DNA from: Botryllus schlosseri
Taxonomy: Eukaryota
Direction: 5' to 3'
DNA: 64,000 nt
NCBI GenBank assembly: GCA_051294905.1
Contig: CM119371.1
Location: 6,760,001-6,824,000, forward strand
The notes under the pieces: model-generated
What the model saw: only the letters and a program-made list of their open reading frames with translations
Database searches by the model: none
What the model was told of the DNA's origin: nothing
Shown: piece after piece, positions 3,075 through 43,675 of the stretch
Position numbering within the stretch: position 1 is the first letter of the stretch
Layout: each line of letters opens with the position of its first letter
Made by a program: the position numbers and the translations under genes

Positions 3075-4693
3075 CTATCTCTTCACGAATACGGATTTGT
3101 AAATCTCAAAACAGTGATCTATTTTTGGTGTCACTATGGTCCATTTGTCTTGTGTTATATCATACTTTTCAATTGTATTAGAGGTTTTTCCTTCTGCTAC
3201 TGCAAAAATCCACTTGTCATGTTGATAAGCGGAAACCCAATCATGCCGAGCATTCATAGAAGAAGATGAAGTCCATTGAGCTGAAGTAACATCGTAACAT
3301 TCTACGTTGTTGACTTGGAGTCCTCCCCTCCCTCCACCGATCACAAATATCTTTTGATCAACTGCAACAACACCACTGTCAGACACAGGATATCTCATTG
3401 GGTCCAGATCAACCCACTCTGATGAGGATGGAGTGAATCTGCAGAACATTGAAACTTCGACACCATCTTGTCCTGCACCTCCGATACAATAGATGGAATC
3501 ATTCAATGATAGAGACTTGTTTCACGAATCGCAGTAGGTTTGTCTTCTAATTGAATCCATTGATTCACGAGGGAAGTAAACATTTCCACATGACTTGTTG
3601 CTCCATTATAACTTCCTCCGACAACGAATATTGATCCCGACAAAGTAACTGAGCGAGGATCGGTTCCATGATCACAAATCATATCTTTCATCTTTTCCCA
3701 TTTTGAATTTTTGTTCTTAAAATGAAGTCTATGAACTGATTTATCATCACATAAAACGTAAATATAAGGGTCTAGAGAAATCGCCGAGAAAGGTTTTAAA
3801 TGCCTAAACTTCTCATCATGAAACTTCTCCACTTTCTCAGTTACTGGATTGAAGGATTGGATACACTCTGCGCCATGATCAAAAAGAATTATCAATTCAT
3901 TATCGCCAATTTCTTCGTTCATTTTGTGCGATGCCTTCAAAAGATGCCCAGTGAGCAGCTTGTACAGTGCTAAGTCGTTACTGATGATTAGGTTTGATTC
4001 CAGAAGACGTTCTAAAAATGCTGGAGAGACTTTTTCAAACTTGATAGGTTCGAGACATTCGTGCAAATATTCTTGATTTTTTCCATTTTTCTCAATCCAA
4101 TTGAACAATAACGTTAGTTTTTCTTCTTCGCATAAGTGTGATTTTTCCAACATCACAAATTTGAGGACGTTAGTTTTTTCGATATTTCCAAATTCAGGTT
4201 GGTTTGATATTTCCATGATATTTTCAAGAAAAAATATTCTACATCGCGTAGAGACGGCCTCCAGTCCATACATATCGGCGACATTTCTTGTGGAAAAGTA
4301 ATTCTCTACATTAACTGATTCCTCCAAATAGTCAGATACTGCCTGTTTTATGTCTTTCAACTGCATCATGATTGCGACATGAAGAAGATGATTCATCTTT
4401 TCATCAGGAATCTCAAATTTGCCCGAATATATGAAATCGATGCAGTTTTTCACACATTGAGAATCGACCTCTTTCAGAACGACTTTTCCTTCGCGACTCT
4501 CTTTGGTGTCGTGCTTTAACATCGCTTTGAAGTAAGCACAACCAGCCGACAATACATTTCTGTGAGTGTAATAGACATCATCTCCCACTTGAATTATGAA
4601 ATCACAATGATCGTTTTCCAGCTTCATTCGATGTAATTCTTCCATCATCTTCACTGAATGTTGCTCTACATTTGGACACACAATCTGCACCAT
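3075..4693 (-). pseudogene. Intronless BTB-BACK-Kelch (KLHL-like) gene, copy 1, split by a 1-bp frameshift
   Basis: ORF 3503-4693 carries BTB (HCDFIIQVG..HRNVLSAGCAYFKAML), BACK and the first Kelch blades. ORF 3075-3506 carries the remaining blades (IYCIGG, IFVIGG, VECYD, IEKYD). Against copy 4 (caatgataCgagac), one base is missing at 3511/3512 (caatgata-gagac). Confidence 0.9.
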
Positions 4694-6271
4694 GATTGCT
4701 AATCAAGCACAATATATAATGATCCTACGATTATTATAATACAGTCAAACACTGTTATTGAAGTAAAGATTAGTTAACTCAAGTAAAATACCTGTTGAAA
4801 GAATCATAAAACTTATCAAGGCCACTAGTTGAATGAATGAATTGAAGGAAAGTCAACTACACATAAGATGAACACTGAATGGTGCCAGTATCCATTGTAT
4901 ATTGATAGTTTGCACGATGACACGAACCAGGGACCTCGTGGATTATCACTAATCTAAATGTTATTTTGGAACCTTGTAGCATAATTTTATACTACGGTAT
5001 ATTCCAGGAATGGCCATATCGGTTTTATGCTCGCACGAATTATCACGAAGCTCAGTTAAAACAGCCGCAAACCGAAAGGTCATGCTGGTTTCACTACGTG
5101 TTTGGAAACGAAATCAGCGAAGCATGTGGCATGTCAGCGTCTTCTGGCGGATAATTAGTTATTAGATTTGGAGTCTAGCGGTTACTGACGGGGTCATTTC
5201 AAAACACCACAAAACTGCGATACAGTGAAAAAGGGGAGGGAGTCGAAACGACTTCGGGTAGTCTTTCAAATCAGACACCCAACAGGACCTAGGCGATCTA
5301 GAGAAGAGGCATGCGCACTGAATGAAAAGCAAAGCAGAGAATGAAAAAAGGCAAGCTAATCCTATAAATAGGTAGGCTACAATCTTTCAAAATATATGCA
5401 TTCACGATGATGTAGGAGCTATTTAGTGCAGTTATTATGACTCATAAACATGTGGCAGATTGATCACAAAGCTATTTTCTGTTTTTCCAAATCCAAAGTG
5501 TTTAGGTTTATTAGTTATAAATAAAAGTCCAGGTATGGTATGTAGTGCAATTAAGCAAAACGTACCCAAGTACTGTAAACGGGTACAATCTTCAGCAATA
5601 TATTCAGTTACGATAACCGGCATTTTTACGCGTTTCTTCTACAATTTCATTAATAAAACTAATCAATACTTTAATCAACGAAGGTCAGATTATATTTTCA
5701 TCTGAACTAGACAAGACAGACACAATGCGACGTGATGAACAGATCGAAGATTACGGAAGACCAGTTGTGGTGTTGCTTTGTGTCCGATGTCTCAATTCCC
5801 TTTTCAATGTTATAGTCTCTATCCCGCGACTCTTTCTAACTCTTTCCATTCTTTGTGGGTATGCATGCACATCTTCTATCCGGTCTGTTTCTGGGCTTTT
5901 TTGGTCGTCGTATCATAACATTCATAAGACCAGCAACGCGGGAGAAGAGAAGCGCATAATATGCTAATCTCCGGCACGGAATCGAACATGGGCGCTTATC
6001 GTCACCACAACGCTATCTCCCCCGCTAAATGTGCCAGTTACCCAAAACTACTTTTTACTTTTCAAAACCAGGAATATCTAGAATTAGAACTCTATATATC
6101 CCTGTCCAAAATTCAAAGTAGTTTGCATATAATCTGTTCAGGTAGTAGATTCTACTAATGGTATAAAATATAGTCAGTACTCCCAAAAGTATAAATACTT
6201 TGTCATGGATCCCTCAGGTAATATTTTACTAACTTTGCACTGGTTGACGAATTTTATGGTCATCATAGCAG

Positions 6272-7561
6272 CAGAGGTGGTCAGTAACGAAGTACTTCTA
6301 CTTTTTCGAAGTACACAAGTAGTTTTCCTCTACTTCTGGTACTTACTCAAGTAGATCTGATTTTCGCTACTTCTACTTCGTAATATTTTATGGTCTACTT
6401 ACTTACTTTTCGCTATTTTCAGTTTGTCAAGTAGAAGTAGTTCAATCTTCCAATCAGGAAGATAGCCTAAGGAATTTCGGGGCTGTTTTCACGGAGTATC
6501 AACATTTAATTTTCGTAAAAAGTTTTGTAAAGCCCAGAATTTTCGTCGCGCTTCGCGCGTAGTGCTGGATACGGAGTGACCAGTATGATTTCACGAAATT
6601 ATCGGTGAATCTAATTTAGGTAGAGGGTTTGGCGTGGTTCCGTTCACACCACATTGTCGCCCTTCGTCCATATCATAAATAATTCATCACAGTATATATG
6701 GCTCATCATAACGTTTGAAACTGATGTTTCGCAATCTAGCATTTACTATTGTCATATCGTAATCTATATAGCATGTCCATGGCCTGTCCAAATCTGGAAA
6801 AGTGGACTTAGAATATTTTTTAGTTTTAGAGTTGTTTTAGCATACCACCTTTGAAACTTTCTGGACTAAATACATGTTCTGCTTTTAGAAGTAGTATTTA
6901 TATTTCACTTTCAATTCCCAGTATCATATACTTTGAGTTATAATTATTAGCAGTTTTTTTTGTCTGGATAACATACATGTTGAAGTATAAAAGCAAGTGT
7001 AGTAATGCCTTTGATTTCTGGAAATACAGCTACACATTATGGCATTTTTATGGCCCACCTTATATTTTATTAACGTTTACTAATCGCGCAAAGTGTTTAC
7101 AACGTATCCTATACAACTTCTCCGTATTGCTCTTCGACTAAACTACGGGCCTTATAATATGGGGAATTTATCGCCATACCATGCTATTTTCTAAAACGTG
7201 CTGTTCGAGAAAACAGAGGATTAGCATCGCATTTCCATATCAATACTATCATTTTCATCCCATGATGTGGACGAATACTTACGCTATTGAAAAATTGGAT
7301 ACCTGCTGGTATGCATCAATATAAATCAAGCTCGTCACCTATCGCATAGCTCAATTTGCCATTTTTTACAATCCATGTGAACGAATGATCGTTTTCATAA
7401 CTACTTACTTACTTGAGTACTTTTAAAGTCAGTCAATTCTACTTCTACTTCAAGTAGTTCTAGGTTGCTTATGGAAGAAATACTTCTACTCGTACTTGAG
7501 TAGATTTTTTTCGTCGCTACTTCTACTTGAGTAGATTTCTTGACTACTTTGACCACCTCTG
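6272..7561. mobile_element. Non-autonomous hAT-type element with ctactt/aagtag subterminal repeats
   Basis: TIR cagaggtggtca / tgaccacctctg. 8-bp TSD catagcag at 6264-6271 and 7562-7569. Confidence 0.9.
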
Positions 7562-22420: not shown

Positions 22421-22806
22421 ACGTGATGGTCAAGAGTACTTCTAGTTACAGATTTTGAAGAGTGAGTAGTTCTAGTATCCTCGTTTAATGTGAATAGTGT
22501 TGTGTAATGTTCTGGCAGTCCTTGCCAGCTCGGAGTCAACACTACTAACTACGCAGTCAAGGGTCGGAACTGTCCTATTTTGAGCTCCAAACCCAGTTGT
22601 TTTGAAACGCAGATTCTATCTCCTATAATTTTTGGCTCATTTCTAATTCAGTAATTCGTATTATCGCTATGATGCAGTTGCTTCAGAATTGAATCGACTT
22701 CGTTGTGTTGTGGTTCGCTAGCCGCTGATTTTTAAAGCATGTTAACTGTAGTTCTAGTTTGAGCTGAATTCAAAAAATCCTATAAGTCCGCTCAGGTGAG
22801 TGCAAT

Positions 22807-24444
22807 CTACCTCTTCAAAAATGTGGATGCGTAAATTAGACCACATTGATGTACATTAGGTTTCACTCTAGTCCATTTGTCTTGTGATATATCATACTTT
22901 TCAATTGTACCACCGGTTCCTCCATCTGATACTGCAAAAATCCACTTGCCAATGTGATACGCAGAAACACCACCACGACAAGCATTCGTAGAAGATAATG
23001 AAGTCCACTGAGCTGAAGTAACATCGTAGCATTCTACGTTGTTAACTGCTTTTCTTTGCAGCATTCCACTCCTGCCACCGATCACAAATATCTTTTGATC
23101 AACTGCTACAACACCAGTGACACAAACATGATTTCTCATCGGATCTAGATCAACCCACTCTGATGAGGATGGAGTGAATCTGCAGAATGATGAAACTGGA
23201 ACACCATCTTGTCCTATACCACCGATACAATAGATGGAATCATTCAATGATACAAGACTTGCTGAACGAATCGCTGTAGGCTTGTCTTCTAGTCGAATCC
23301 ATCGATTCACAAGAGAAGAAAATATTTCAACATGACGTGTTGCTTTGTTATAACTTCCTCCAACAACAAAAATCGATCCCGACAAAGAAACTGAGAGAGG
23401 ACGGTGTCCATGGTTAAAAATCATACTTTTTATCTGTTCCCATTTTGAATTTTTGCTCTGAAAATTGAGTCGATGAACTGATTGATTATGACATAAAACG
23501 TAGATATATGAGTCTAGAGAAATCACCGAGAAATATGGGGATTTACTAAACTCCTCATCATGAAACTTGTCTACTTTCTCAGTTACTGGATTGAAGGATC
23601 TGATACAATATGCCGCCGTCCCGAAAAGAATTATCAATTCGTCATCGCCAATTTCTTCATTCCTTTTGTGCGATGCTTTTGAAGCTTCCAAAAGATGTCC
23701 ATTGATCAACTTGTACAATCCGAAGTCGTTACTGATGATTTGGTTTGATTTCAAAAGACGTTCTAAAAATGCCGGAGGGACTTTATCAAACTTGATTGCT
23801 TGAATACTTTCGTGCAAATGTTCCTGATTTTTCATATTTTTCTCAACCCAATTGAACAATAACGTTAGTTTTTCTTCTTCGCATAACTTTGATTTTTCCA
23901 ATATCACAGATTTGAGGATGTTAGTTTTTTTAATATTTCCAAATTCAGGTTGGTTTGAAATTTCCATGATATTTTCATGGAAAAATGCTCTACATCGTGC
24001 AGAGACGGCGTCCAGTCCATACATATCAGCGACATTTCTTATGGAAAAGTAATTCTCTACATCAACTGATTCCTCCAAAACGTCAGACACTGCCTGCTTC
24101 ACGTCTTCCAACTGCATCATGACTGCGACATGCAGAAGATCATTCATCTTTTCATCAGGAATCTCAAATTTGCCAGAATATATGAAATCGATGCAGTTTT
24201 TCACACACTCAGAATCGACCTCTTTCAAAACAACTTTTCCTTCACGACTCTCTTTGGTATCGTGCTTTAACATCGCTTTGAAATAATCACAACCAGCCGA
24301 CAATACATTTCTGTGAGTGTAATGAACGTCATCTCCAACTTGAATTATGAAATCACAATGATCATTTTCTTGCTTCATTCGATGTAATTCTTCCATCATC
24401 TTCACTGAATGTTTCTCTACATTTTTACACACAATCTGCACCAT
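22807..24444 (-). CDS. Intronless BTB-BACK-Kelch (KLHL-like) protein, copy 2, intact, 545 aa from the ATG shared with paralogs
   Basis: Uninterrupted ORF with BTB, BACK and Kelch repeats (GG, Y/W signature residues). The ORF track starts at TTG 24453; the conserved MVQIVC start is at 24444. Confidence 0.93.
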   Translation of the reverse strand: MVQIVCKNVEKHSVKMMEELHRMKQENDHCDFIIQVGDDVHYTHRNVLSAGCDYFKAMLKHDTKESREGKVVLKEVDSECVKNCIDFIYSGKFEIPDEKMNDLLHVAVMMQLEDVKQAVSDVLEESVDVENYFSIRNVADMYGLDAVSARCRAFFHENIMEISNQPEFGNIKKTNILKSVILEKSKLCEEEKLTLLFNWVEKNMKNQEHLHESIQAIKFDKVPPAFLERLLKSNQIISNDFGLYKLINGHLLEASKASHKRNEEIGDDELIILFGTAAYCIRSFNPVTEKVDKFHDEEFSKSPYFSVISLDSYIYVLCHNQSVHRLNFQSKNSKWEQIKSMIFNHGHRPLSVSLSGSIFVVGGSYNKATRHVEIFSSLVNRWIRLEDKPTAIRSASLVSLNDSIYCIGGIGQDGVPVSSFCRFTPSSSEWVDLDPMRNHVCVTGVVAVDQKIFVIGGRSGMLQRKAVNNVECYDVTSAQWTSLSSTNACRGGVSAYHIGKWIFAVSDGGTGGTIEKYDISQDKWTRVKPNVHQCGLIYASTFLKR

Positions 24445-25744
24445 GATTGTCAATCAACTACAATATATAATGATTCTACGATTATTATGATGTAGTAGCG
24501 CTGTTATTAAAGTAAAGATGATTAGGTAGCTAAGTAATGCCTGAACAAAGGATCATAATACTTATCAATGTCACAATTATGAATTGATGTGAAATCAACT
24601 ACACAGAAGTCGCAGTTGTAAGCAAACAGATAGGACAAAGGCGAGAGGAGAGACATTGAATTTCAAGCTTAATCTGAACACAGTCATGTCTTAAATTTAG
24701 TGTTGATACATTTATAAAAACCTGCTATGCTAAAGCCGCAGGTTCCACAAACAACAACCCAAAATTATTCAAAACACTGATGCTAAGTGAAGATGTCAAA
24801 CTATCTGTAGTAACCAAAGCGAAAGAATCAAAACTTCTGTACAATATCATCTATACATAGTAAGTATTAGAATTTGCAACCTAAATTGCATATTTTCCCC
24901 GAAGTAAAAGAAGCCGTATTGTGGCTTTGGGAATAGTCAGGATTAACACATCTGCGAGATGCAGTGGTTCTTGACCTTTTCATGGATGCGGCCCAATTTT
25001 CTTTTCGCAAATATGCCATGATCCACAACTCAGCCTCAATCTCTATCTAAGCGGCGGTAATATGGCAGGTTTAGAGAGGTGACCTATGTAATGGGTGTCA
25101 CATCACAATTCCCTTGTCATTGACCTAAGTTATTGTTTCAACTGAATAGCAGGTTGTAAATTCAGAAAGGGGCGTCAATGTCATTAACGAGCGGCACAGT
25201 GAAATTTTACGATTCGTCAAGGGGTATCCGGCCCTCGACTTAAACAACTAGAACTTTTCAGATTTTTCAAATTAGGGTAAAGTCTGAATAATAGCTACAC
25301 TGTTTTTTTTCAAATGAAGGGTAAAATAAGAATTATAGCTAAACAGTATTTTCCAAACTACTTTAAAATTACAAATATAGTTACTTTTTTTTTCAAATTA
25401 TATTCGAATTGCCGAGTCCACGATAACTTGGACATTGAATCAAGTTCAGAGCAAATCATAGTTGTGAGCGCGATAAAGGCAAACCTTAGCTCGTTTCGAG
25501 CTACACAGTTCTTCTGGAGCATTTACAGGAAAACCGGAAGTTAGATTAGAATAAAATTAAAGCATAAAAACATAATTCAAATTAAATTAGTATTAAAGCA
25601 AGGACACATTTCACGAATTCGACTACTTGCATTTCAACCTTATTAGTCATATTGTACAACTAAAATTATGTAGTTGTCCAAGTAGGTCTGGACTCTGGAC
25701 AGTCTCCGATTTTTTAGGTGAACTGTTTGATTTGGAGTCCGACT

Positions 25745-27536: not shown

Positions 27537-27819
27537 TTGGAAAAGCTTTGCATTGCTACTTTTACTTAGAGTAGCTTTTTCGACCACTTCTGATAACGCA
27601 TACGGGCTCATGCAATCACAGATTGTTGTTCTTATTCTTAGAAACTTTTCCGAGGCAGCCAAGAAACTTTACGTCCATCCAAATTTACTGGTCTCAGTGT
27701 GCAATATTTATTGCGTGATTTCTTTGTCAGCTAGGAATTTCTTTGTCAGCTAGGAATGAGAAAATATTGGGTGTAGACATAGGTAGAGAGTGTAAATATT
27801 GGTGTGCTCATGTCACCAG

Positions 27820-29336
27820 CAGAATTGGACAACTAGATAATTCCAACTAGATAATTCCAGTTGTCTAATTCCCACTAAATTAGAGCGAAATGCCAGTAAT
27901 CTAATTCTAATCTAATTTGTGAAATGTTTCCATGCTCTAATTCTAATTCTAATCTAATTTGTGAAATGTCCGTCTGCTCTAATTCTAGTTTTAATCCAAT
28001 TAATGTTTTCCTGAAAATGCCTCTTTGTCCGAGGCATATTGCACTATTGCAGTGAGTTAACAAGAATATCCCTCTTGCGCAGGGAAATCCAGTGCCAAGC
28101 CGCCATCGCCTTACTTACACCGTGCAGTCTAAGATGATATTATGACGAATAATAGCCTGCTAGTGTAGCTTGTAGTCTGGGAACAACATTCTAGTTATTA
28201 AAACTTTATGTTAGTACATCGTCATTCTGACTAACATGGGCTATGCCCACGGTTACCATAAAAGAAGTAAATAAAAGAAGTAATATTTTATTAAAGTATA
28301 GTAAAAATCGAGCCAAGCTTGGTGTACAGAAGTTAACCATTCTCATGGTTATGGGAATGCACTGTTGTTGTTGTTTATTAAACAAAAATATGTGGCGCTT
28401 ATCGCCTCACGGCCTTTTTCACCACTCACTGTGATTTGATGTGAACTGAATTTGGCTGTATTCCTTTCCCATATACATTTTCATTCAATTTCCAAGTTTT
28501 TGCAAACTAAGTAGCTCTAATTATAATCTAATTTGAAAAAAGCTTAGTAGCTCTAATTCTAATCTAATTTGAAAAAAGCTTAGTAGCTCTAATTCTAATT
28601 CTAATCTAATTTGAAAAAAGCTTAGTAGCTCTAATTCTAATTCTAATCTAATTTGAAAAAAGCTTAGTAGCTCAAATTCTAATTATAATCTAATTTGAAA
28701 AAAGCTTAGTAGCTCTAATTCTAATTATAATCTAATTTGAAAAAAGCTTAGTAGCTCTCATTCTAATTCTAATCTAATTTGAAAAAAGCTGTGTAGCTCT
28801 AATTCTAATCTAATTTGAAAAAAGCTGTGTAGCTCTAATTCTAATTATAATCTAATTTGAAAAAAGCTTAGTAGCTCTAATTCTAATTCTAATCTAATCC
28901 GAAAAAAGCTGTGTAGCTCTAATTCTAATCTAATTTGAAAAAAGCTGTGTAGCTCTAATTCTAATTCTAACCTAATTTGAAAAAAGCTGGTGTAGCTCTA
29001 ATTCTAATTCTAATCTAATTTGAAAAAAGCTGTGTAGCTCTAATTCTAATTCTAATCTAATTTGAAAAAAGCTGTGTAGCTCTAATTCTAATCTAATTTG
29101 AAAAAAGCTGTGTATCTCTAATTCTAATCTAATTTGAAAAAAGCCGTGTAGCTCTAATTCTAATTCTAATCTAATTTGAAAAAAGCTGTGTAGCTCTAAT
29201 TCTAATTCTAATCTAATTTGGAAAAACTGAGTAGCTCTAATTCTAATTATAATCTAGTTTGAAAAAAACTGTGGAGCTATATTCTAATTCTAATCTAATT
29301 CAGAAAAGCTGAAAATTTTCTATTTGTCGAAGTCTG
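27820..29336. mobile_element. hAT-type element containing an expanded minisatellite
   Basis: Ends cagaattggacaa / ttgtcgaagtctg. 8-bp TSD gtcaccag at 27812-27819 and 29337-29344. Confidence 0.85.
28510..29310. repeat. 37/43-bp minisatellite, gtagctctaat(tctaat)1-2ctaatttgaaaaaagct(ta|gt), about 19 copies
   Basis: Directly visible tandem array. The unit switches from the gctta variant to the gctgt variant along the array. Confidence 0.95.
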
Positions 29337-30509
29337 GTCACCAGAGATAGCTTAGTGCTATGAATATCCATGGGATTTCATTCTGAAATTTACAACATGA
29401 ATGTTTGCTATGTATATTTTTTACACTGTTGCCAATTCTGGATATGCCACAATATTTCAACCCACCTGAAGTCATATCCATTACAGGAAGTCTTGACATA
29501 AATATCTTGTCTTTTGGCAGGTGACAAGCCTGAAAGAAAATCTCACAATTACACAGCAAGAAAAATAGACTTGAACTAGACTTGGACAACTGGAAAATTT
29601 TCAGCATTTCCAAATTAGATTACAGTTACAGCTACAAAGTTTTTCCAAATTAGAGTAGAATTATAGCTACACAGTTATTTCCAAATTTGATTAACATTAT
29701 TATTGTAGCTACAGCTTTGTCCCAATTAGATTAGAATTACTGAATTCGCGCAAACTTGGATATTGAATCAACTTCCATTAATACCAAATCATGGTTCATT
29801 CTAATGAGCATGACTGGAGTATAGCATGCTGCATGGGAATAGCAAATGTCTGCAGAGCAAACTTGGTTCGTTTCGGTCTATACAGTTCTCCTGTAGCATT
29901 TACAGGAAAACCGGAAAGTAGATTAGAAATGAAATTAGAGCATAGAAACATTTTACAAATTAGATTAGAATTAGATTACCGGTGCCAGCATTTAGGAAGA
30001 TTTGTTTGGTTATTAGACTCTGCCCTGTTCCCAATGTCACATCAATGATGCAATTAACCATCCCATAAAAGAGGTAAATCTTGATGATCACTAACGAATA
30101 CAGAGGCGTGCTTGGAGGGATGGTTTTAGATGGGATTTCAAGAACATGAAGCACAGGGAAGGGAAGCTATTATCCATACTTCAATTGTTCTATTAGCAGC
30201 CATTCACGTTAAATCAGTTCCTACAAACCGGGATAATAGTTTCAGCGTTGGGGCAAATTGAAAACTGATATCATTATGTTAACTTCACTAATCAACTCCT
30301 AAATTCTTCCATAGGTGCGAATAGAATGTTGATGTCTGTCCTAATTGTGACTTGAAAATACGCAGCCAGATAAAACTCACCTTGCATGACAATTTGTAAA
30401 TTGCTTGCCTGTGATGATAAAGAAAGGATGCGTCAGGTTGGAACCGATTAAAATTTGAACTTGACAGTCACCAATGTGTTCAGACTTGTTGCTACAGATG
30501 GAAATAAGG

Positions 30510-30931
30510 TAGGGTTACCATATTTTGAAATCGGAAAGGAGGACACTTCTACCAAATCATTTCAAGTTAGTTGAAGAAAACTGAAAGCAGCCGACTTTGC
30601 AATATTCACTGGAAATTATGTTGAGTTCACTACAAAAAAAAAGTTCATCTTTTTTACTCGACTCCCGGTTTACCCACTTTTTATTTGAATTTTGTGGTAT
30701 TCACTAAAAGAGGTAACCACTATCATTTAAATCCCGAATGACCCCCTCGAACGCCAATTTCACGTCATTTATGCAGATTTCCGTTGAATCTGTCCATTAA
30801 CCTAGCTGTAAAAGCTGTAAAGGATGACCGATTGCCCAAAGGGAGGGCATTTATCCGTCCTCGAAGGACATTTCTAAAAACCTGAAAAAGGAGGAAAAAT
30901 CCTTCCTAAACGAGAACGTATGGTAACCTCA
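30510..30931. mobile_element. Blackjack-like hAT MITE (unit 3 copy)
   Basis: TIR tagggttaccata / tatggtaacctca. TSD aaataagg at 30502-30509 and 30932-30939. Confidence 0.85.
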
Positions 30932-32292
30932 AAATAAGGTCGTTAATCGTGGTTGAGTTGAGTTTATTGAGAATAATTGTATCATTTCAAAAACACCCCA
31001 CCGCGCCTTAGCATTGATGGCAAATAATCGAATCCAACATCATTGATGAATTCAGAATGACTCACTTTCATCTCCCGAATAGAATTGTCAGACATTGATG
31101 CATGTCAGATTCCAACTGATTGAGATTGTCATGCAAATTTCTTTATCACCAAAGCCACTTCCAATCGGCCAACCAGACTATGAAATGATACGTTATAAAT
31201 TATGATCTTCTGGTTGCAATCCACTGTAAAAAATTGAAAAGAGTGGTTATGAAAAGTAACATCAATGAATGTATTGTATATACACCACAGCCTGCTTAAA
31301 CCAGGCTATCGTACAAGAAAATGTGGTAGATAACGAGTTGCCGATAGGTGGTTTGTTAAGTAACATGCGAAAAAATTCGGATTTCTTGATCATGGATCGC
31401 AAAAAAATAATGACACACAATAAAGACAACAAGATAAACGAAAATTACATCCGATTTAATTTCGTACTTGGATATAAAGTTGTAACTTGGCTCAAAAAGT
31501 GGCTCAACAGCATTGAATCATTGAATGCAGTGGGTTATTTCATACTGAATATTGGAAGGGTAAAACTTATACGACTTACTGTAAACAATGAGTTCTTAAC
31601 TCCTGATAAGGGCCATATAACCCTAGTGGGATCAATTGTGCAAGTCGTCAAAATGAACAACCATATCTATATTGGGCAAGGTAGTAAACATATGATGGGC
31701 TGCATCAACTAGAATTGCCGGCATGATTATGCACTTTTGTACAAGTCTTGAAGAATATTTCCACAAAATTACTGACTACTATTGCTATCATATTCATCAA
31801 ATGATACGAATCTACCGAAAAGTAGGTTATATGAAAAATTGAACATACGGATACAAAGTTCTGCCGATTGGAAACAAAAAAATGCACGATCTTGAAGGCA
31901 ATTGCCGTATGATGCATATAGCTTTATGAGTTGATATTTTTATTCATGTCTCAGCTGCAGATTTGTACAAACTACTAATCTAGTTAGTTCATGATCAAAT
32001 AGTAGTTCCAGTTGCAAATTTCAAAGCAAGCAGTTTAGCGTGAACAGTGATACTGGTGTTCTGTTGTGTGACGTTCTTGCAGCTATTGCAAGCTTGGAGT
32101 CAACACTACTAATAATAATGGTGTGGCCAGTAAATGGGTTTAGAGGGTAGAAAACTGTCCATTTCGAACTCCAAATGTTTAAACACAGATTCTGTCTCCA
32201 ACTCAGACCAATTTGCATTAGAAGTACCCTACTGCACTTGCTTAAGAACTGAAAATCGAGTAATTGCACAAGTTTGCTCAGTTGAGTGCGAT

Positions 32293-33805
32293 CTATATCT
32301 TCACAAATACTGATTAGTAAATTGGAAAACATTGATCTACTTTTGGTTTCACTATAGTCCATTTGTCTTGTGATATATCGTACTTTTCAATTGCATCAGA
32401 AGTTTCTCCATCTGTTACTGCAAAAATCCACTTGTCAATGTGATACACAGAAATTCGACAATGATAATCATTCATAGAAGATAGTGAATGCCACTGAGCT
32501 GAAGTAACATCGTAACAGTCTACGTTGTCGACATACTTTATTCCTCTCCAGCCACCGATCACGAAAATCTTTTGATCAACTGCAACAACACCACTCACAC
32601 AAATCTCATTGGGTCGAGATCAACCCACTCTGATGAGGATGGAGTGAATCTGCAGAATGAAGAAACTAGGACACCACCTGGTCCTTCACCTCCGATACAA
32701 TAGATTGAATTATTCAATGATACGAGACCCACATCACATATCGCTGTAGGTTTGTCTTCTAGTTCAATCCATTTATTCAGGAGGGAAGTAAATATTTCCA
32801 CAACATGGTCACAAATCATATTTTTCATCTTTTCCCATTTTGAATTTTTGCTCTGAAAATTGAGTCGATGAACTGATTTATTCCTACATAAAACGCAGAT
32901 ATACGAGTCTAGAGAAATCGCTGAGAAATGTTTTAAATTCGTTAACTTCTCTACTTTCTCAGTTACTGGATTGAAGGATCGGATACAATCTGCCTCATCA
33001 TCAAAAAGAAGTATCAATTCATCATCACCAATTTCTTCATACTTTTTGTGCGATGTTTTTGGAGCTTCTAAAAGATGTACAATCTGAAGTCGTTTCTGAT
33101 AGTTTGGTTTGATTTCAAAAGACGCTCTAAAAATGCCAGAGCCACTTTATCAAACTTGACCACTTCGAGACACTTGTGCAAATGTTTCTGATTTTTCCCA
33201 TTTTTTTCAACCCAATTGAACAACAACGTTGTTTGTCTTCTTCACATAACTTTGAGTTTTCAGACTTCACATAACTGAGGATGTTAGTTTTTTCAGTATT
33301 TCCAAATTCACATTGGTTTGATATTGCCATGATATTTTCATGAAAAAATGCTCTACATCGCGTAGAGACGGCATCCAGTCCATACATATCGGCGACATTT
33401 CTTGTGGAAAAGTAATTCTCAACATCAAGTGATTCCTCCAAAACGTCAGATATTGCCTGTTTCACATTTTCCAACTACATCATGATTGCGACATGAAGAA
33501 GCTCAATCATCTTTTCTTCGGAAATTCCTAATTTGCCTGAATATATGAAATCGATGCAGCTTTTCACACATATAATCAACCTCTTTCAAAACAACTTTTC
33601 CCTCTCGACTCTCTTTTGTGTCGTGCTTTAACATCGCTTTGAAATAAGCACAACCAGCCGACAATACATTTCTATGAGTGTAATAGACATCATCTCCCAC
33701 TTGAATTATGAAATCACAATGATCGTTTTCTTGCTTCATTCGATGCAATTCTTCCATCATCTTCATTGAATGTTTTTCTACATTTGGACACACAATCTGC
33801 ACCAT
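32293..33805 (-). pseudogene. KLHL-like copy 3, multiply disrupted
   Basis: Four ORF fragments are colinear with the paralogs. Lesions include a ~2-bp deletion near 33571, CAG>TAG near 33476, further frameshifts, and an in-frame loss of ~25 codons near 32803 (CDH-V-VEIF vs CDHGPNPSSVSLSGSIFVVGRSYPKATSDVEIF). Confidence 0.9.
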
Positions 33806-34692
33806 GATTGTCAATCATGCACAGTAAGCTATATAGAATGATCCTATGATTGTTATGATATAGTCAAGCACTGTTGTTGAAGTAAAGATGATTAGTAGGG
33901 TAGATTTCGCACTGTCTACCGTTGCAGACTGCACATTGTCTGCTCATTGTGAATCATAAACGGTTACAAGCACACACACTCTCACATTACTACGGTAATA
34001 AACATTGGTCAGAAACGAAATTTATGAAGTAGTCAAATAGCATATGTATAGTAGGGTTGTTCAGAATTGACCGACTTTCAAAAAGTCTAGGTTTTCAGTC
34101 CGTTTCCCATGCCTTATACCTTAAAAACAAATTCTGGCAACTTTTTTTTGTAATTCATCCCCTGCATCCGTGTGCACATTGCCGTTTTCTCATGCAACTA
34201 AAAATTTCTTCGGAATTAGGGGATTCCCCCGTTGTCAGTGACTCGACAGGAATGGCGTGTGTTCTCATTGACGTGACGCGTATGGTTCTAGCGCTGAGCA
34301 CGGCTGTGAAACGGGGATCATTGATTAGTCAGGTGCCTTGCTGCTTTGTTGTTGATGGACTGTGTTTACGATAGAGGTGCAGGACTTATCAGGCGGCGTT
34401 TTGACTCATGCTATTAGCGAGTTTAGCGCGTGATTAGTGAACATAGTATTATAGCAGTATACAACTATTTAATGTAATAGACCTGATACTCTTTTCCTTT
34501 CTACTGGGATAGAAACAAAGCTTGCAAATGTCTATTCCAGTGACTGGGGAAAACCGCCAGTCGGTTGCTCTAAATTTTTTGTTATATCCCAAGATATCAA
34601 TATACTGGTATGAGTTTTTCCAATTTAGGAATAACTATCTTCGATAATCTATAACTGGATCTAATCTGGCTACTCCTGTGCAAGTTATGCAG

Positions 34693-35653
34693 CAGTGTTG
34701 GGATCAAGTCACTACCTTCGAGTCACGAGTCATTTCGAGTCATTGCACATTTTGACTCGAGTCAAGTCAAGTCATTCGATTTTTAAAGGTGACTCGAGTC
34801 AAGTCAAGTCACTCATTTTTTGCGGGTGACTCGAGTCAAGTCGAGTCAAGTCAAGTCAAGTCACGAGTCAAGTCACGATTCAAGTCAAATTGAATTTTCG
34901 AAGTATGAATGATGATGCAAAGTCATCGCATTTTGCTAACTGGGTAAAGTACAGATAAATTGACTATTTATCTTGAATAAAATAACGAATATAAAGGTAA
35001 ACATACATGGAAAAAGACGTTGTATCGTTCACGAACACGTAGAACTGCTAATAAAATACGCGAGTAACTGTGTATACTAACATGCTACAGTTTGTTATTA
35101 TCAGCCAATATTGAGGATAGAATACGTAGCCTCGAGAAGTTGAACAAATTGATGCAGTACAATACACAATCACCACATCCGTGAGAATATAAACTCATAA
35201 ACTATATAATCGATCGATTTAAATCATACAAGAGTGTTGGTAAAGGTGAGCACTGCGCAATGTAAGCACTGAGCCGCATAAGAAACAAAGATGCGTTGCT
35301 ATTATATATTTATCTATGCTACTACGACAACGTAAGCTGTGATCGTTTCGTTTGCGGTCAATTTATTTATGATGTAACAATGGAGGATCAGTGAAATGCA
35401 CAATCAGTAAATGACTGGTTGCTCGCACAAGTGACACCGGCGTATTGCGGACAACCCGGAACCGTTTACTTGATGACTTGAAATTGACTCGTAAATTTTG
35501 CTCCGAGTCACGAGTCCATCCACATTTTTGAAGCGCCGAGTCAAGTCAAGTCAAGTCATTTTTGCAAAGTGACTCGAGTCAAGTCAAGTCATACGAAAAA
35601 GTTGAGTCGAGTCTGACTCGAGTCAAGTCATGACTCGAGTCATCCCAACACTG
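34693..35653. mobile_element. hAT MITE (gactcgagtc family) nested in the hATm-like element
   Basis: TIR cagtgttgggat / atcccaacactg. 8-bp TSD ttatgcag at 34685-34692 and 35654-35661. Confidence 0.92.
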
Positions 35654-35769
35654 TTATGCAGTATGTGTTTGACCTAAAACTCTAATAGAACTGAAAGGTT
35701 TTCCACTATTCTTTGTTGCTTGACTGAGTTTATGTATATCTGTTTTTCTAGGATTAGCTGTAGTGCGAA

Positions 35770-38128
35770 ATGTCTGAAAAAAAAAGAAAATCGTCATCTA
35801 GTGCAGCAGTACCGAAGAAAACTAGAAGAACACGATCGCAGACACAGCATTTCTTAGTTGGGCCATCTGAGGAAGCCATTACGGGATCGAAGTTGCCCAG
35901 AATGCCCACTCTGTGGCAAGTATGCAATATGTGCTACACCTGAGAGAGCATTCATTTTAAAAAAATGAACCAGTCAAGTCACACATCCAGATCGCAGTAA
36001 ATGAAGTGATCGGTTTTTGGTTACTTGCTGGCATAAAGACTATCACAAAAGTCAATGCCACTAAAAGATTGGAAACAGTGTGGAAACAATGGCTGTCACT
36101 AAAGAAAACTGCAGGCCGGCAATATGTATCAAAAAAACAAAGCGACTTTGAAGCCAAACTGAGTAAGCTATGGGATATAGGAGCCCTTGACGCGATAGCG
36201 ACAATTGAAGCAAGTAGACTTCTTCCTGACGATCAAAAACGTGAAGACATAGCATTTTATCAAGATCAAAGGGGTCCGAGATTAGCAATGATCGGTGGCA
36301 AAGATAAAGTGTTGAAAGCGAAAATCATGCAACAAAAGAGACGGACCATGACTGCAAGAGAGTCTGCACCAGCATCAAGTAGCGAAGGTGAATTTACAGA
36401 GAGCTCATCTATATCTTCACAGGTAGCTGACACTTCTCACAGCACTGATTTTGAACTTGCACAGTCGACATTTGGTCATACCGCTAAATTTGTGACTATA
36501 AAAGCTCCTGTAAACCTATTCAGCGACGAAGACCTAGGCCAGGTTTTTGATCGCTTGAAAGTCAGTGATAATGCCGCTACCATGATAACTGCAGCACTGA
36601 TTAAAGCTTGCGATGGCAACCCTAATGACTTCCATCTTTCAAGATCTGGGACCTATCGACGACGCATTGCAAATCGTTTGAAAATTTCCGAATCTATCTT
36701 TGAAAAAATATCCACCAATCCACCAGAGCACATTGCATTGCACTGGGATGGAAAGCTCACTAAGAGTCGTCTAGGATATCAATTTGAGACCTTGGCAGCG
36801 CTCGCATCGTCTGCGTATTCCGGCGCATTTAAGAAAGGGAAACTTCTTGGCATTCAAACTCTGGAAAGTGCTACAGGAAAAGCACAGGCTGATGCATCAT
36901 TTGAACTGCTGGAACTTTGGAATTTAACAAAATCTGTTAGAGCTCTTGTGTTTGACACAACATCCTCAAACACTGGTAAAAACAAAGGTGCGGTTCCGTT
37001 ACTTGAAGAATTGATTAACAGGAAAGTTTTCTACAATGCCTGTCGCCATCATATTTATGAACTGGTCATTCGAGAGGTTTGGAAGTGTTTGTTTGGATCG
37101 ACAACCACAGGCCCTGAAAACACGGATTTTAATACCTTCAAGAAGAAGTGGAACCATATTGATAAATCAAGAAGCTATAAAACGCTGAAGTTTATTGAAG
37201 GCAGCTGGTTGGCGATGAAAGCTGATGAAGCAAAGCAAGAAATAATCCCACTGATGAAACCCAATGATGGAAAGCAGAAAGAAGTCTTGATAAGAGATAA
37301 CTACAGAGAATGTGCAACTGCAACAGGCACCTTGGCGATTTTGGATGACAAATATGTTGATCATCGTTTTCGCAAGCCTGGTGCTATTCATGCGCCAGAT
37401 GGATGAGTCAAATCCTGTACTGTCAAAAAATGTTCATGTGGAGTGAGAAAATGGACTATTCTGAAGAGTTCATTGAAAAGTTGGAATGAATCAATACATT
37501 CATTGCTTTGTTTTATGTTCCAGCTTGGTTGAAAACTGGTATTGCATGTGACGCACCTTGGAATGATCTCAAATTCCTTCATGACATGAAAAACTTTTCA
37601 TTATGCGATCTCACTGTTGCTGATGTGGCATACAAGAAATTGCGAAAACATCATTGGTATCTAACTGAGTAAATGGTGGTATTTACCATGTTCTCGGCTA
37701 ATCCAAAGATTCCTGACAAACTGAAGGAAGCGATGGCTGCTAAATTGCTGAAAATGCCAATCCCTGAAAAATTTCGCAGAGGTATGCCTCTCAGTCTGAT
37801 CTCTGACTCTGTCTCTGAGTCAATGAGTATGGTCGATTTGATTGGGCCAGAATCGTGGTTTCTATTTGATGCTATACATGTGGAACATGATTGGTTGAGT
37901 CTTCCAGTTTCGGAATGGCATACTGATCCGGATTTCGTGACTACTCAAGAATTTGTGAATACTGTTGAAGTAGTTAATGATGCAGCAGAGCGTATGGTAA
38001 AATTGAATACCGACTATGCTGCGTTCATAACGGATGACAAAAAACAGATAGCGAGCCTCCTACAAGCTGTGGAAGATCACCGGAACAGATATGCAGATTT
38101 CTCGAAAGCAACCATTTCATCCACCTGA
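35770..38128 (+). pseudogene. hATm-like transposase pseudogene
   Basis: Motifs LHWDGK, FDTTSSNTG, ACRHHIYEL, PGAIH/ARWM and VVNDAAERMVKL. Frameshifts near 35905-35930 and 37390. Premature stops near 37488 and 37670. Confidence 0.88.
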
Positions 38129-40498
38129 TTTATGTAATATTTTGCCAAGTTGATCTCTTTCTTTGCCTTATTTTTTCGTTTCCTGTGATGTTTATTATGT
38201 GGCTGTGAGTGGATGTTACATTTAAAGTTGTATTCTTGCACATGGGGATCCAGGAAATTGATGAACAGTGCCGGGTAGGTTTGAGGGGTGTAGGATATGT
38301 GATCCAACAAAATCACTATCAGTTTTAGGTAGTTTTGAGCAGTTCTAAGGCAGTGTGGGACATGGAAATGATATCCTGAACTAGGAATGCCTTATATAGT
38401 GGGGTTTTGTAGCACTACAAACCACAACAGCTGCATAAATCCGTTGTTATATGTCACTTCAACTAGGCTAGGTAAAATCGTGACACTCAGATTTTAGGGG
38501 ATTCCCCTATTTTCAGCTGCTATTCTTCCAGCTCAATGTGCACACGGATGCAGGGGACGAGTTACAAAAAAAAGTAGCCAGAATATGTTTTTAAGGTATA
38601 AGGCATGGGAATCGGACTGAAAACCTGGACTTTTTGAAAGTCGGTCAATTCTGAACAACCCTAATGTATAGTCTACTTGCACTTAGTCAAGTATTCAAGG
38701 ACTAGGACTTGCGGTCTTTCTTGATCATTTGTTCAGCCCAAGCAGCTCAGCTACACTACAAATATCTTTAATTTGGTCAAGTGGGAAGGAGCATTTGGTT
38801 ATATTTACATCGATTTAACAATTTAACTAAACCAGACGATGCATTTACTCGATCCCAGTATCATAGCATAATTCCAATTTAAAAATTATGTACAATATTA
38901 TCTATATAATTGGCCGTAGCCTATTTTCCATTTTGCAAATATGCCATGATCCACCACTCAGCCTCGATATACATCTAAGCGGCAGCAATACGGCAGGTTT
39001 AGGCCAAGCAGTTCATATCAAATTGGTTTGTTCTTATGAGCACGAGAATGGAAAATGTACGTATCGCAAGCTTGTCCCATTTTGAACTATACAGTTATTT
39101 TTTGGGATTTACAGGAGAACCGGGAATTAGAGTGGTACATTTCCCAAATTAGATTAGAATTAGAGCCAGAAACATTTCAAAAATTAGATGCGAGTCAGAT
39201 AACTGGCATTTTCCTAGGAAGAGAGGTGACCAATTTTACGGATGTATCAGGTTTTTTAAATTAGGGTCAAATCACAATTATAGCTAAACAGTATTTTCCA
39301 AACTAAAATGAAATTAGAAATATAGTTACACTTTTTTTCCAAATTATATTAGAATTGCGAGTTTACGAAAACTTGGACATTGAATTACCGGTAAGTACAG
39401 TTCATATCAAATCATAGTTTTAAGCACGATAAAGGCAAATGTCTGAAACGCAAGCTTAGCTGGTTTCGAGCTATATAGGTCTTCTGTAGCATTTACAGGA
39501 AAACCGGAAAGAAGATTAGAGCATAGAAAAATCTCCCAAATTACAATAGAATGAGAGCAAAGATACAATGCACAACTTAGATTAGATTTTAATTACTGGC
39601 ATTTTGCTTTAGTTAGTCAAATTGGACAACTAAAATTTTCTAGTTGTCCAAGTACGTCTGGACAGTCTCCGCCTTTTTGAGTAACTTGTTTGATTTGGGG
39701 GTTCGACTTGGATTGGTACTTGGGACTGCAGTGTGCTTCGCCCAGTCACTAGGTGCCGACAAAGTGAGATAAGCGCTTTTCATGAGGTCTCCCCGACAAA
39801 TTTGAAATTTTATCGCTGTCTGATTTCGTCGTCGTGACCATGGGAGGGGGTCTGAGGATTGGATTTTACGAATTCTTCGGTTCACCTGCTACCTTCTTAC
39901 TCCCCTTGAAACGTTCCCCGGGATTGGGCCAGTTCAGATTCTCCACCTGCGAAAAATATGTAAGGGGTCAGTCAACACTTGCATTGGAGTCGTGGGATTT
40001 TAAGGTTTTTTTTAAAATTGATACAGAGGCGTGCTTGAATGCATGATTTTAAACGGGATTTCAAGAACATGCAGCACGGGGGAGGGTGGCTATCAGCCAT
40101 ACTTCAATTGTTCTATTAGCTAATTAGCAGATACGCACGGTTTTATCAGTTTCTACAAACTGGGATACGGTACCAACTTCAACGTAGGAGCAAATTGAAC
40201 TGATATCACTAGTTAACTTCGATAATCATTTTCTAAATATCTAGGTTAGTGTGAATAGAATATCGTTGTCCATCCTAATTGTGGCTTGAAAATATGCAGG
40301 CGGATAAAACTCACCTTGAATGACAATTGGTGTACTTGCTTGCAAGTTACAACTTGCTCGACTCAGATCCATAGAAAACCCTTTCCTGTGATGATAAAGA
40401 AAGGATACTTCGGGTTACGATTCAAATCCGAACTTTATAGTCAACCAAACTATTCAGCCAAAGTGTTTGACTTGTTGCTACAGATGGAAATAAGGTAG

Positions 40499-40930
40499 TA
40501 GGGTTACCATATTTTGAAATCGGGAACGGAGAACACTTCTACCAAATCATTTCAAGTTAGTTGAACAAAACTGAAAGCAGCCGATTTTGCAATATTCACT
40601 GGAAATTATGTTGAGTTCACTACAAAAAAAAAGTTCATCATTTTTACTCGTCTCCCGGTTTACCCACTTTTTATTTTAAATTTGTGGTATTCACTAAAAA
40701 AGGCCACCACTTTAATTTAAATCCCGAATGGCCCCCTCGAACGTTCGAATTGCCAATTTCACGTCATTTATGCAGATTTCCGTTGAATCTGTCCATTAAC
40801 CTAGCTGTAAAAGCTGTAAAGGAGGACCGATTGCCCAAAGGGAGGACATATATCCGTCCTCGAAGGACATTTCTGAAAACCTGAAAAAGGAGGAAAAATC
40901 CTTCCTAAACGAGAACGTATGGTAACCCCA
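40499..40930. mobile_element. Blackjack-like hAT MITE (unit 4 copy, same insertion site as 30510-30931)
   Basis: Near-identical sequence with the same aaataagg flanks. Confidence 0.85.
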
Positions 40931-42043
40931 AAATAAGGTCGTTTACTCGTGGTTGAGTTGAGTGTAGTGAGAATAATTGTATCATTTCAAAACACCCCAC
41001 CGCAGCTTAGCATTGATGGCAAATAATCGAATCCAAAATCATTGATAAATTCAGAATTACTCACTTTCATCTCTTGAATTGAATTGTCAGACATTGATGC
41101 ATGTCAGATTCCAACTGATTGAGATTGTCATGCAAACTCTTTTATCACCAAAGCTATTTCCCATCGAACGACCAGACTAATAAATAATATATTATAAATT
41201 CTAATCTTCTGATTGCAATCCATTGCAACAACATGAAGAGTGGTTATGAGAAGTAATATCAATGAATGTATTGTATGTAGACCACAGGTTGCTCAAACCA
41301 GGCTATCATACCAGCAGATGTGGTAGATAACGAGTTGCCGATAGTCGCCACATATAAGCATAATCGAAATGGTTTGTTAAGTATGCGTAAGAATTCAGAT
41401 TTCTTGATCATGGATAGCAAAAAAGTAATGACACACAATACAGACCAGATAAACAAAAATTAGATCCGATTTTATTTCGTACTCGGATATAAAGTTGTAA
41501 CTTGACTCAAAAAGTGGCTCAACAAGGAAGACATCCACACTTTTTTGAAATTTCCAGGCATTGAATAATTGAATGCAGTGGGTTATTTCATACTGAATTA
41601 TGGGAAGGGGTAAGACTTAGGCTATACAGTTTACTGTAAACAATAGGTTCCCCACTGCTGATATTGGCTGTATAATCATTGTGGGATCAATTGTGCAAGT
41701 CGTCAAAATGAACGAACATATATAGCTATATTGAGTAAGGTATTAAATATATGATGGGCTGTATCAACAAGAAATGCTGGCAGGATTATGCACTTTCATA
41801 CAAGTCATGAAGAATATTTCCACAAATTTGCTGGCCACTATTGCTATTACATTCATCAAATGATACGAATCTACCGGAAAGTAGTTTACACATGACACAT
41901 TTGTAAAATTGAACGTACGAAGTTCTGCCCGATTTGAAACACAGTTTCTATTTCCAACTCGGTAATTCAAATGATAAGTACTTCAGTTGCTTCGGATCTG
42001 AAAAATCCAGTCATTTGCACAAGTCTGCTCAGGTGAGTGCAAT

Positions 42044-43675
42044 CTATCTCTTCACAAATACGGATCTGTAAATCTCAAAGCATTGATCCACTTTAGGTGT
42101 CACTTTTATCCATTTGTCTTGCGATGTATCATACTTTTCAATTGCATCACAGGTTTCTCCATCTGTTACTGCAAAAATCCACTTGTCGATGTGATAAGCA
42201 GAAACTAGAATGTGACGAGCATTCATAGAAGATAACGAAGTCCATTGAGCAGAAGTAGCATCGTAACATGCCACGTTTTCGACTTGGTATCTTCCAGCAC
42301 TCCCCCCACCGATCACAAATATCTTCTGATCAACTGCAACGACACCACTCCCCCATACAGGATATCTCATTGGTTCGAGATCAACCCACTCTGATGATGC
42401 TGGAGTGAATCTGCAGAATGATGAAACTATGACAGCACCTGGTGCCATACCTCCGATACAATAGATGGAATCATTCAATGATACGAGACTTGTTAAACGA
42501 ATCGCTGAAGGTTTGTCTTTCAGTTGAAACCACTGATTAGCAGGTGAAGTAAATATTTCCACGTCACTTGTTGCTTTAGGATAACTTCTTCCAACAACGA
42601 ATATTGATCCTGACAAAGAAACTGAGCTAGGATTCGGTCCATGGTCACAAATCATATCGTTCATCTTTTCCCATTTTGAATTTTTGCTCTGAAAATTTTG
42701 TCGATGAACTGATTTATTCCCACATAAAATATAGATATAAGAGTCCAGAGAAATCGCCGAGAAATGTTTCAAATCCTCAAACATCTCATCATGCAACTTC
42801 TCTACTTTCTCAGATACAGGATTGAAGGATCGGATACAATCTGCGTCATCATCAAAAAGAATGATCAATTCATCATCACCAATTTCTTCTTTCATTTTGT
42901 GCGATGCTCTAGGAGCTTCTAAAAGATGTCCATTGATCAACTTGTACAATCCGAAGTCGTTTTTGATAATTTGGTTTGATTTCAAAATACGTTCTAAAAA
43001 TGCCGGAGAGACTTCATCAAACTTGATTGCTTCAAAACACTCGCGCAGATGTTCCTGATTTTTGCAATTTTTCTCGGCCCAATTGAACAATAAAGTTAAT
43101 TTTTCTTCTTCACATAACTTTGATTCTTCCAGCATCACAAATTTGAGGAGGTTAGTTTTTTCTATTGTTCCAAATCCAGGTTGGTTTGATATTTCTATAA
43201 TATTTTCATGAAAAAATGCTCTACATCGCGCAGAGACAGCATCCAGTCCATACATATCGGCGACATTTCTGGTAGAGAAGTAATTCTCTACATTAACTGA
43301 TTCCTGCAAAATGTCGGATACGGCCTGTTTCACGTCATCCAACTGCATCATGATTGCGACATGAACAAGATCATTCATCTTTTCATCAGGAATCTCAAAT
43401 CTGCCCGAATATATGAAATCGATGCAGTTTTTTACACACTGAGAATCGACCTCTTTAAAAACAACTTTTCCTTCACGACTCTCTTTTGTGTCGTGTTTCA
43501 ACATAGCTTTGAAATAAGCACAACCAGCCGACAATACATTTCTGTGAGTGTAATAGACATCATCTCCTACTTGAATTATGAAATCACAATGATCGTTTTC
43601 TTGCTTCATTCGATGTAATTCTTCCATCATCTTCACTGAATGTTTTTCTACATTTCGACACACAATCTGCACCAT
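42044..43675 (-). CDS. Intronless BTB-BACK-Kelch (KLHL-like) protein, copy 4, intact, 543 aa
   Basis: Uninterrupted ORF with the same domain layout as copy 2. Confidence 0.93.
   Translation of the reverse strand: MVQIVCRNVEKHSVKMMEELHRMKQENDHCDFIIQVGDDVYYTHRNVLSAGCAYFKAMLKHDTKESREGKVVFKEVDSQCVKNCIDFIYSGRFEIPDEKMNDLVHVAIMMQLDDVKQAVSDILQESVNVENYFSTRNVADMYGLDAVSARCRAFFHENIIEISNQPGFGTIEKTNLLKFVMLEESKLCEEEKLTLLFNWAEKNCKNQEHLRECFEAIKFDEVSPAFLERILKSNQIIKNDFGLYKLINGHLLEAPRASHKMKEEIGDDELIILFDDDADCIRSFNPVSEKVEKLHDEMFEDLKHFSAISLDSYIYILCGNKSVHRQNFQSKNSKWEKMNDMICDHGPNPSSVSLSGSIFVVGRSYPKATSDVEIFTSPANQWFQLKDKPSAIRLTSLVSLNDSIYCIGGMAPGAVIVSSFCRFTPASSEWVDLEPMRYPVWGSGVVAVDQKIFVIGGGSAGRYQVENVACYDATSAQWTSLSSMNARHILVSAYHIDKWIFAVTDGETCDAIEKYDTSQDKWIKVTPKVDQCFEIYRSVFVKR

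Follow-up and report, generated by a model that had tools for sequence, protein, structure and literature searches.

A tandem array of single-exon BTB-BACK-Kelch genes with a conserved scaffold and diversified propeller loops

Why should a cluster of intronless genes hold one domain nearly constant while the loops of another change from copy to copy? We addressed this question for a stretch of 64,000 nucleotides (C1:6760001-6824000 of a 495.5 Mb eukaryote assembly; here called the window), the minus strand of which carries four single-exon BTB-BACK-Kelch copies, A to D (tblastn with a 545-amino-acid open reading frame [ORF] as the query; Table 1). The original prediction for this DNA described an intronless array of four KLHL-type genes; the array is real, but two of its four copies (A and C) are broken. 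The contrasting Kelch loop strings quoted there are all present, those of copies B and D in ORF translations and those of A and C by motif search. Our analysis indicates that the BTB and BACK scaffold of this family is under purifying selection, and that approximately 20 to 26 codons, nearly all of them in the BC loops and the inter-blade DA loops of the Kelch propeller, are under recurrent diversifying selection.

The four copies belong to a much larger family. When the genome was searched in six frames with copy B, the best 80 of 529 first-look candidates were scored (all E < 1e-197); 53 of these 80 lie within C1:6.54-7.55 Mb and, together with copy C, give at least 54 array loci over ~1 Mb. 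Uninterrupted full-length frames were found in 46 of the 54 array loci, the remaining eight being disrupted or truncated. The array genes encode proteins of 537 to 548 amino acids in a single coding exon and keep frames of ~540 codons at a synonymous divergence (dS) of ~0.28. Two more searches, which used divergent members as queries, added 10 and 12 new places; with ~80 hits scored per search, the genome-wide family size, given here as a lower bound, is at least 102 distinct places (at least 103 loci with copy C), with further clusters at C1:13.8-14.0, 14.7-15.7, and 35.9-36.2 Mb and on C14. Beyond this genome, only three full-length relatives were found among 1.84 billion representatives (52, 46, and 42% identity), all others being at most 36% identical. 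The family is thus large, lineage restricted, and made up of tandemly arranged single-exon BTB-BACK-Kelch (KLHL-type) genes. The proposal that the cluster evolves by birth and death is supported by the pseudogenes A and C, by the disrupted or truncated loci of the array, and by near-identical recent duplicates. One such pair, L041 (C1:6706742-6708946) and L042 (C1:6851579-6853783), lies 145 kb apart and differs by 1 base in 2,205, which points either to segmental duplication in the very recent past or to a duplication in the assembly.

To compare the domains, ORFs were cut from 50 loci; L017 (premature stop) and L047 (without the usual N terminus) were dropped, leaving 48 aligned sequences. 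L042, whose coding sequence is identical to that of L041, and the outgroups L048 to L050 were set aside, leaving 44 array paralogs for the selection analyses. Mean amino acid identity among these paralogs was 0.912 in the BTB domain, 0.786 in BACK, and 0.750 in Kelch, and the peaks of column entropy fell in discrete Kelch loops. The contrast between BTB and Kelch that had been seen in four copies therefore holds, and better so with more copies; however, "almost invariant" overstates the BTB domain, which is ~91% identical with 47 of 104 columns invariant. Over all 946 pairs of the 44 paralogs (Nei-Gojobori), nonsynonymous (dN) and synonymous divergence were 0.043 and 0.275 in BTB, 0.111 and 0.305 in BACK, 0.141 and 0.346 in the linker, and 0.146 and 0.278 in Kelch. 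Since dS is equal in BTB and Kelch while dN differs 3.4-fold, purifying selection acts on the BTB domain (dN/dS ratio, omega, of 0.15). Across estimates, omega ranged from 0.15 to 0.21 for BTB and from 0.36 to 0.49 for BACK. On the strength of the same equality, we reject the idea that BTB identity results from gene conversion alone, which should bring BTB dS near zero. One position of this otherwise conserved domain toggles recurrently: in each of the four recent paralog pairs that are not identical, the two members carry different residues at BTB position 53 (copy B, window ~24284-24286; Ala, Asp, or Pro), a site that received no flag from site model M8.

Site models were fitted to the 44 paralogs with codon models of the GY94-F3x4 type, in which the branch lengths from iqtree could change only by a common scale factor. 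The one-ratio model M0 gave an omega of 0.478 (log likelihood [lnL] −24320.56). Allowing a class of codons with omega above 1 improved the fit from −23222.15 (M1a) to −22889.77 (M2a; omega2 of 4.44 on 5.1% of codons), and from −23208.53 (M7) or −23137.57 (M8a) to −22865.05 (M8; omega of 3.84 on 5.9% of codons). Twice the log-likelihood difference (2dlnL) was 664.8 for M2a against M1a, 687.0 for M8 against M7, and 545.0 for M8 against M8a. At an M8 posterior above 0.95, 26 codons were called, of which 21 lie in the Kelch alignment region (256 codons), 2 in BTB (125), 2 in BACK (107), and 1 in the linker (54); 4 to 15 residue types occur at the selected sites among the 44 copies. The 21 codons refer to the alignment region labelled Kelch, and the corresponding number is 22 in the propeller as modelled (amino acids 269 to 545). 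The selected sites outside the propeller are, in copy B, residues 7 (disordered N terminus), 79 (BTB), and 204 and 211 (a BACK helix).

This signal was examined with several controls. When 11 segments of 40 to 63 codons were each fitted on their own tree, all six Kelch segments (40 to 45 codons) remained significant (2dlnL of 57.0, 98.9, 20.0, 55.1, 97.2, and 15.4), whereas both BTB segments did not (3.2 and 0.0). The segment comprising the linker and blade 1 gave 23.1, and the two BACK segments gave 3.0 and 21.5; the latter, which contains residues 204 and 211, was the only one to keep significance among the segments holding the sites outside the propeller. Nine of the 26 selected sites lie within 3 columns of a gap, and removal of all such columns (204 Kelch columns left) still gave a 2dlnL of 309.9 with an omega2 of 5.9. 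With synonymous rate variation allowed in a FUBAR-like grid, beta > alpha was still favored, by 124.9 lnL units overall and by 82.3 for Kelch on its own tree. In all four random 22/22 splits of the paralogs, the held-out omega of the called sites was 2.03 to 3.21 (2dlnL against omega = 1 of 23.9 to 36.6), compared to 0.36 to 0.43 at the remaining sites. The suggestion of diversifying selection in the loops is therefore supported for a subset of codons (~5% of the total), with an omega of 3.8 to 4.4 in the full set and, at the called sites, 2.0 to 3.2 in held-out halves.

The selected sites were then placed on a predicted structure. Copy B supplies the residue numbering used here, and an AlphaFold2 (AF2) model of it, computed from 46 sequences, has a mean predicted local distance difference test score of 86.6 and contains 24 propeller strands in six blades. 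In Foldseek comparisons with the Kelch domains of KLHL12, KLHL3, and KEAP1, the propeller scored template modeling (TM) values of 0.82 to 0.87 with a root mean square deviation of 2.6 to 3.4 (KLHL12, TM 0.84 to 0.86), and the full-length model was best matched by full-length chains of KBTBD2 and KLHL22 taken from CUL3 complexes. The family profile likewise aligns over its full length with KEAP1 (E 5e-125) and KLHL22. Long and short loops alternate along the chain of the model, so that the long set, consisting of the BC loops after the GG doublet and the DA loops between blades, is predicted to lie on one face; strand letters were assigned from the position of the GG doublet. Sites were placed by strand and loop order from DSSP, a topological mapping rather than a three-dimensional distance. 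By this mapping, BC and DA loops, with 110 of 273 residues, contain 19 of the 22 selected propeller sites (Fisher P = 5e-6); 1 of the 38 residues in AB and CD loops is selected, and every blade has at least one selected site. Passages of PMC3597819 describe the DA and BC loops as forming the substrate pocket of Kelch propellers. The earlier expectation that variable sites would gather on the substrate face and not be scattered thus agrees with the model, in which all six blades are hit on that predicted face.

We favor, with a probability of roughly 0.65, the reading that the locus is part of a large birth-and-death KLHL-type array, with a scaffold under purifying selection and a diversified substrate face, that tracks fast-changing intracellular targets. 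Our results show a family that gains members by duplication and sheds them as pseudogenes, with paralogs swapping segments via ectopic recombination or gene conversion. The BTB/BACK scaffold is held by purifying selection, and loops on one face of the six blades diversify. The proteins would serve ubiquitin ligases, most likely those built on CUL3, as substrate receptors, and every paralog would present its own binding surface; the family would therefore keep pace with intracellular targets that change quickly, for instance proteins of pathogens or selfish elements, and might serve in defense. A more elaborate version, which we regard as a long shot, holds that the conserved BTB domain lets every paralog dimerize with every other, so that 100 or more receptors would give thousands of mixed dimers, each with two different propeller faces capable of two-site capture, and that conversion between array members reshuffles loop cassettes. 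The outcome would be a germline-encoded combinatorial repertoire of intracellular ubiquitin ligase receptors, an innate analog of a recognition repertoire, directed at rapidly evolving proteins inside the cell such as those of viruses or transposons.

Several of our results weigh against the favored reading, beginning with recombination, which is known to inflate site-model tests and is pervasive between these paralogs. In approximately unbiased (AU) tests, the N-terminal half rejected the Kelch tree (log-likelihood difference [dlnL] of 602), Kelch rejected the N-terminal tree (338), and three Kelch sub-segments rejected one another's trees (168 to 413). The codon models, moreover, are our own code, not PAML or HyPhy. 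Taken as a class defined a priori, BC and DA loops have an omega of only 0.73 (AB and CD loops, 0.47; strands, 0.41; BTB, 0.21; BACK, 0.49). The two cross-cluster tests, which are free of shared ancestry, are weak: the 26 main-array sites have an omega of 1.38 in the 36 Mb cluster (n = 9) and 0.89 in the 15 Mb cluster (n = 11), neither different from 1 (other sites, 0.41 and 0.36), and sites picked by entropy from those two clusters (top 15, 26, and 40) have main-array omegas of 1.32, 1.18, and 1.33 (2dlnL of 2.5, 1.7, and 7.3). The same loops are thus fast in three clusters, while omega is clearly above 1 only within the main array. These results could mean that there is no adaptive diversification at all, the BC and DA loops being unconstrained (omega of ~1) and recombination plus bias in site choice making the models report an omega above 1. 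We consider this unlikely. Null data sets generated under M1a with three different segment trees and then analyzed on one tree did yield spurious 2dlnL values (5.9, 25.1, 38.8, and 8.9; omega2 of 1.5 to 1.9); however, the real values (419.4 for Kelch, with an omega2 of 5.08, and 665 overall) are approximately 10 times this inflation. In addition, the Kelch segments stay significant on their own trees where the BTB segments do not, and omega at the called sites remains significantly above 1 in held-out halves. Recombination can also be seen directly in one pair of loci 490 kb apart, L033 (C1:7551195-7553420) and L035 (C1:7058984-7061209), which differ at 16 codons (5 nonsynonymous, 11 synonymous), all within BTB codons 8 to 113, and are identical at the other ~430 codons, a clear gene-conversion tract over the BTB domain.

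Other points against the favored reading concern CUL3 and expression. Passages of two sources describe BTB-Kelch proteins as a class of CUL3 E3 ligase components (PMC3597819 and PMC10564622), and the latter describes a phi-x-E motif that puts a hydrophobic residue into CUL3, with KEAP1 Leu115 burying the largest interface area. At this position copy B reads T63-K64-E65 (residue 63, window ~24254-24256). Of 39 family rows, 37 have Thr and 2 have Ser as the phi residue, rather than a hydrophobic one; the two nearest outside relatives have Thr as well, whereas five generic KLHL relatives read M-K-E. The propeller face might thus diversify without CUL3, in decoys, sequestering proteins, or cytoskeletal adaptors that use the BTB domain for oligomerization only. 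This we hold to be distinctly improbable, given that the Glu of the motif is invariant, that BTB and BACK are under purifying selection, that the best full-length structural matches are CUL3-bound chains, and that the class is so described in those sources. Judging from domain architecture, the proteins are most likely CUL3 adaptors, a role with which Thr at the phi position does not fit. The cullin genes of this genome are split into small exons. The breakage of two of the four window copies, together with RNA coverage, would instead suit an array of mostly silent, decaying duplicated DNA whose genes are no longer functional: in four bulk RNA runs mapped to 30000-44400, depth was ~0 to 1 over copies C and D, reaching 2.5 only at the conserved 5′ end of D, compared to 10 to 27 over a neighboring transposon-like stretch (34329-38657). 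Yet each run was read only to ~6 to 13%, 46 of the 54 array loci keep their ~540-codon open frames at a dS of ~0.28, and BTB omega is 0.15 to 0.21, which makes wholesale decay very improbable. Between 87 and 98% of the mapped RNA reads run on into unlike sequence, so many of them probably come from paralogs or repeats, and those at the conserved 5′ end of D may come from paralogs. For the interval around copy B (22500-24800), a look-up listed no RNA data set. The transposon-like stretch shows many loose ends along with its higher depth, as expected of a transcribed dispersed repeat.

Among known systems, the CUL3 receptors of the KLHL/KBTBD type (KEAP1, KLHL12, KLHL22, and KBTBD2) share with this family the three-domain order and the six-bladed propeller, and the loops that vary here correspond to those forming the substrate pocket in the account given in PMC3597819. 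The family nevertheless differs from the generic KLHL relatives among our matches in being only 20 to 24% identical to them, short, encoded by a single coding exon, and fixed for Thr or Ser at the phi position. The Kelch superfamily is put at 63 members in a passage of PMC12035522, compared to the at least 103 loci in tandem arrays here.

The adaptor families of the F-box and MATH-BTB types in nematodes and plants, the expansions of which were reportedly described by Thomas in 2006 in Genome Research, resemble this array in lineage-specific tandem growth, a conserved cullin-side domain, birth-and-death evolution, and positive selection concentrated in the substrate-binding domain. What sets the present array apart is its recognition module, a Kelch propeller joined to BTB-BACK, and its occurrence in another animal lineage. 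Parts of PMC8120010 relate to such expanded F-box and MATH-BTB families. Poxvirus BTB-Kelch proteins (vaccinia A55, C2, and F3, as presented in parts of PMC6484134) are likewise intronless and multicopy and belong to a host-pathogen setting, but the copies described here sit in chromosomal arrays of a 495 Mb genome with no viral context. Nucleocytoviricota contribute one of the nearest Atlas clusters; many cellular KLHL clusters score equally, and the score therefore shows no special kinship to that group.

A conserved scaffold combined with unusually fast evolution of the target-binding loops is a pattern found in ubiquitin ligase adaptors that pursue quickly changing targets. Examples of such rapidly diversifying adaptors exist in which the recognition module is F-box, MATH, or TRIM/B30.2. 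Full-text literature searches, which did not use the organism's name (so that a genome paper may already mention the expansion), turned up no description of an animal BTB-Kelch array as large as this one in which the substrate face of the propeller is under positive selection. If the favored reading is true, the Kelch propeller joins the folds used in an intracellular evolutionary arms race, ~20 defined surface positions become available to mutate, and the family offers, as a library, more than 100 natural propeller variants among which to look for targets. The fixed Thr at the CUL3-contact position raises the question of whether the family uses CUL3 in the usual way.

The features of the window that belong to the family are collected in Table 1.

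Table 1. Positions of the BTB-BACK-Kelch copies, their domains, and their flanks in the window
Feature	Position	Strand	Description	Evidence
Copy A	3078..4693	-	BTB-BACK-Kelch gene with a disrupting 1-nt deletion near 3512	tblastn, translation, alignment to B and D, Pfam
Copy B	22807..24444	-	Intact single-exon BTB-BACK-Kelch gene, 545 aa	ORF, Pfam, AF2 model
BTB domain of copy B	24070..24381	-	aa 22-125	Pfam, alignments
BACK domain of copy B	23752..24048	-	aa 133-231	Pfam
Kelch propeller of copy B	22810..23640	-	Six-bladed, aa 269-545	AF2 DSSP, Foldseek, site mapping
Conserved 5′ flank of copy B	24445..24609	-	~165 nt common to A and D	Self-blastn, consensus of 29 paralog upstream regions
5′ flank equivalents	4694-4885 (copy A), 43676-43856 (copy D)	-		Self-blastn
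Copy C	32299..33805	-	Pseudogene, internal deletion and in-frame stop	tblastn, three-frame translation
Copy D	42044..43675	-	Intact single-exon BTB-BACK-Kelch gene, 543 aa	ORF, Pfam

The domain assignments of the copies rest on Pfam matches to PF00651 (BTB/POZ; E 3.2e-21 in B, 1.7e-20 in D, and 2.8e-21 in A) and, C-terminal of the BTB domain in copy B, to PF07707 (BACK; E 1.3e-12); Kelch repeats were also detected by Pfam. In copy A, an ORF of 396 amino acids (3503-4693) is followed by the C-terminal 148 amino acids in another frame (3078-3512), with 1 nucleotide missing at the frame change relative to B and D. Copy C consists of five frame-switching tblastn pieces with its in-frame stop near the 3′ end and is a multi-frameshift pseudogene. 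Nucleotide similarity among the copies (self-blastn) covers the coding region, ~100 to 200 nucleotides upstream, and a short 3′ flank. Conservation over ~170 nucleotides of the upstream part extends to 29 paralogs, and this part may represent a proximal promoter or 5′ untranslated region.

A viral or transposon origin of the BTB-Kelch genes was considered and rejected for lack of evidence: Pfam searches of 18 more ORFs in the window, each at least 110 amino acids long, turned up neither viral nor other domains, with the exception of a PHD finger (PF00628, E 1.3e-5) in an ORF of 377 amino acids at 51902-53035 (plus strand). That ORF is bracketed by ~590-bp repeats (50902-51495 and 58744-59338) that match in both orientations, and together they may represent a mobile element. 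Two ORFs within the transposon-like stretch (35961-37406 and 37673-38128, plus strand) have no Pfam match; the Atlas clusters closest to them consist of unnamed eukaryote proteins, most often from arthropods and cnidarians, and there is a weak lead (0.76) to relatives of FAM200/ZBED5-type transposases. The window also contains three tandem repeats: a 42-bp repeat between copies B and C (28516-29311; 19.7 copies, 88% identity), a 203-bp satellite just upstream of copy D (44463-48819; 21.5 copies, 97% identity), and a 327-bp repeat of 2.8 copies at 56917-57837.

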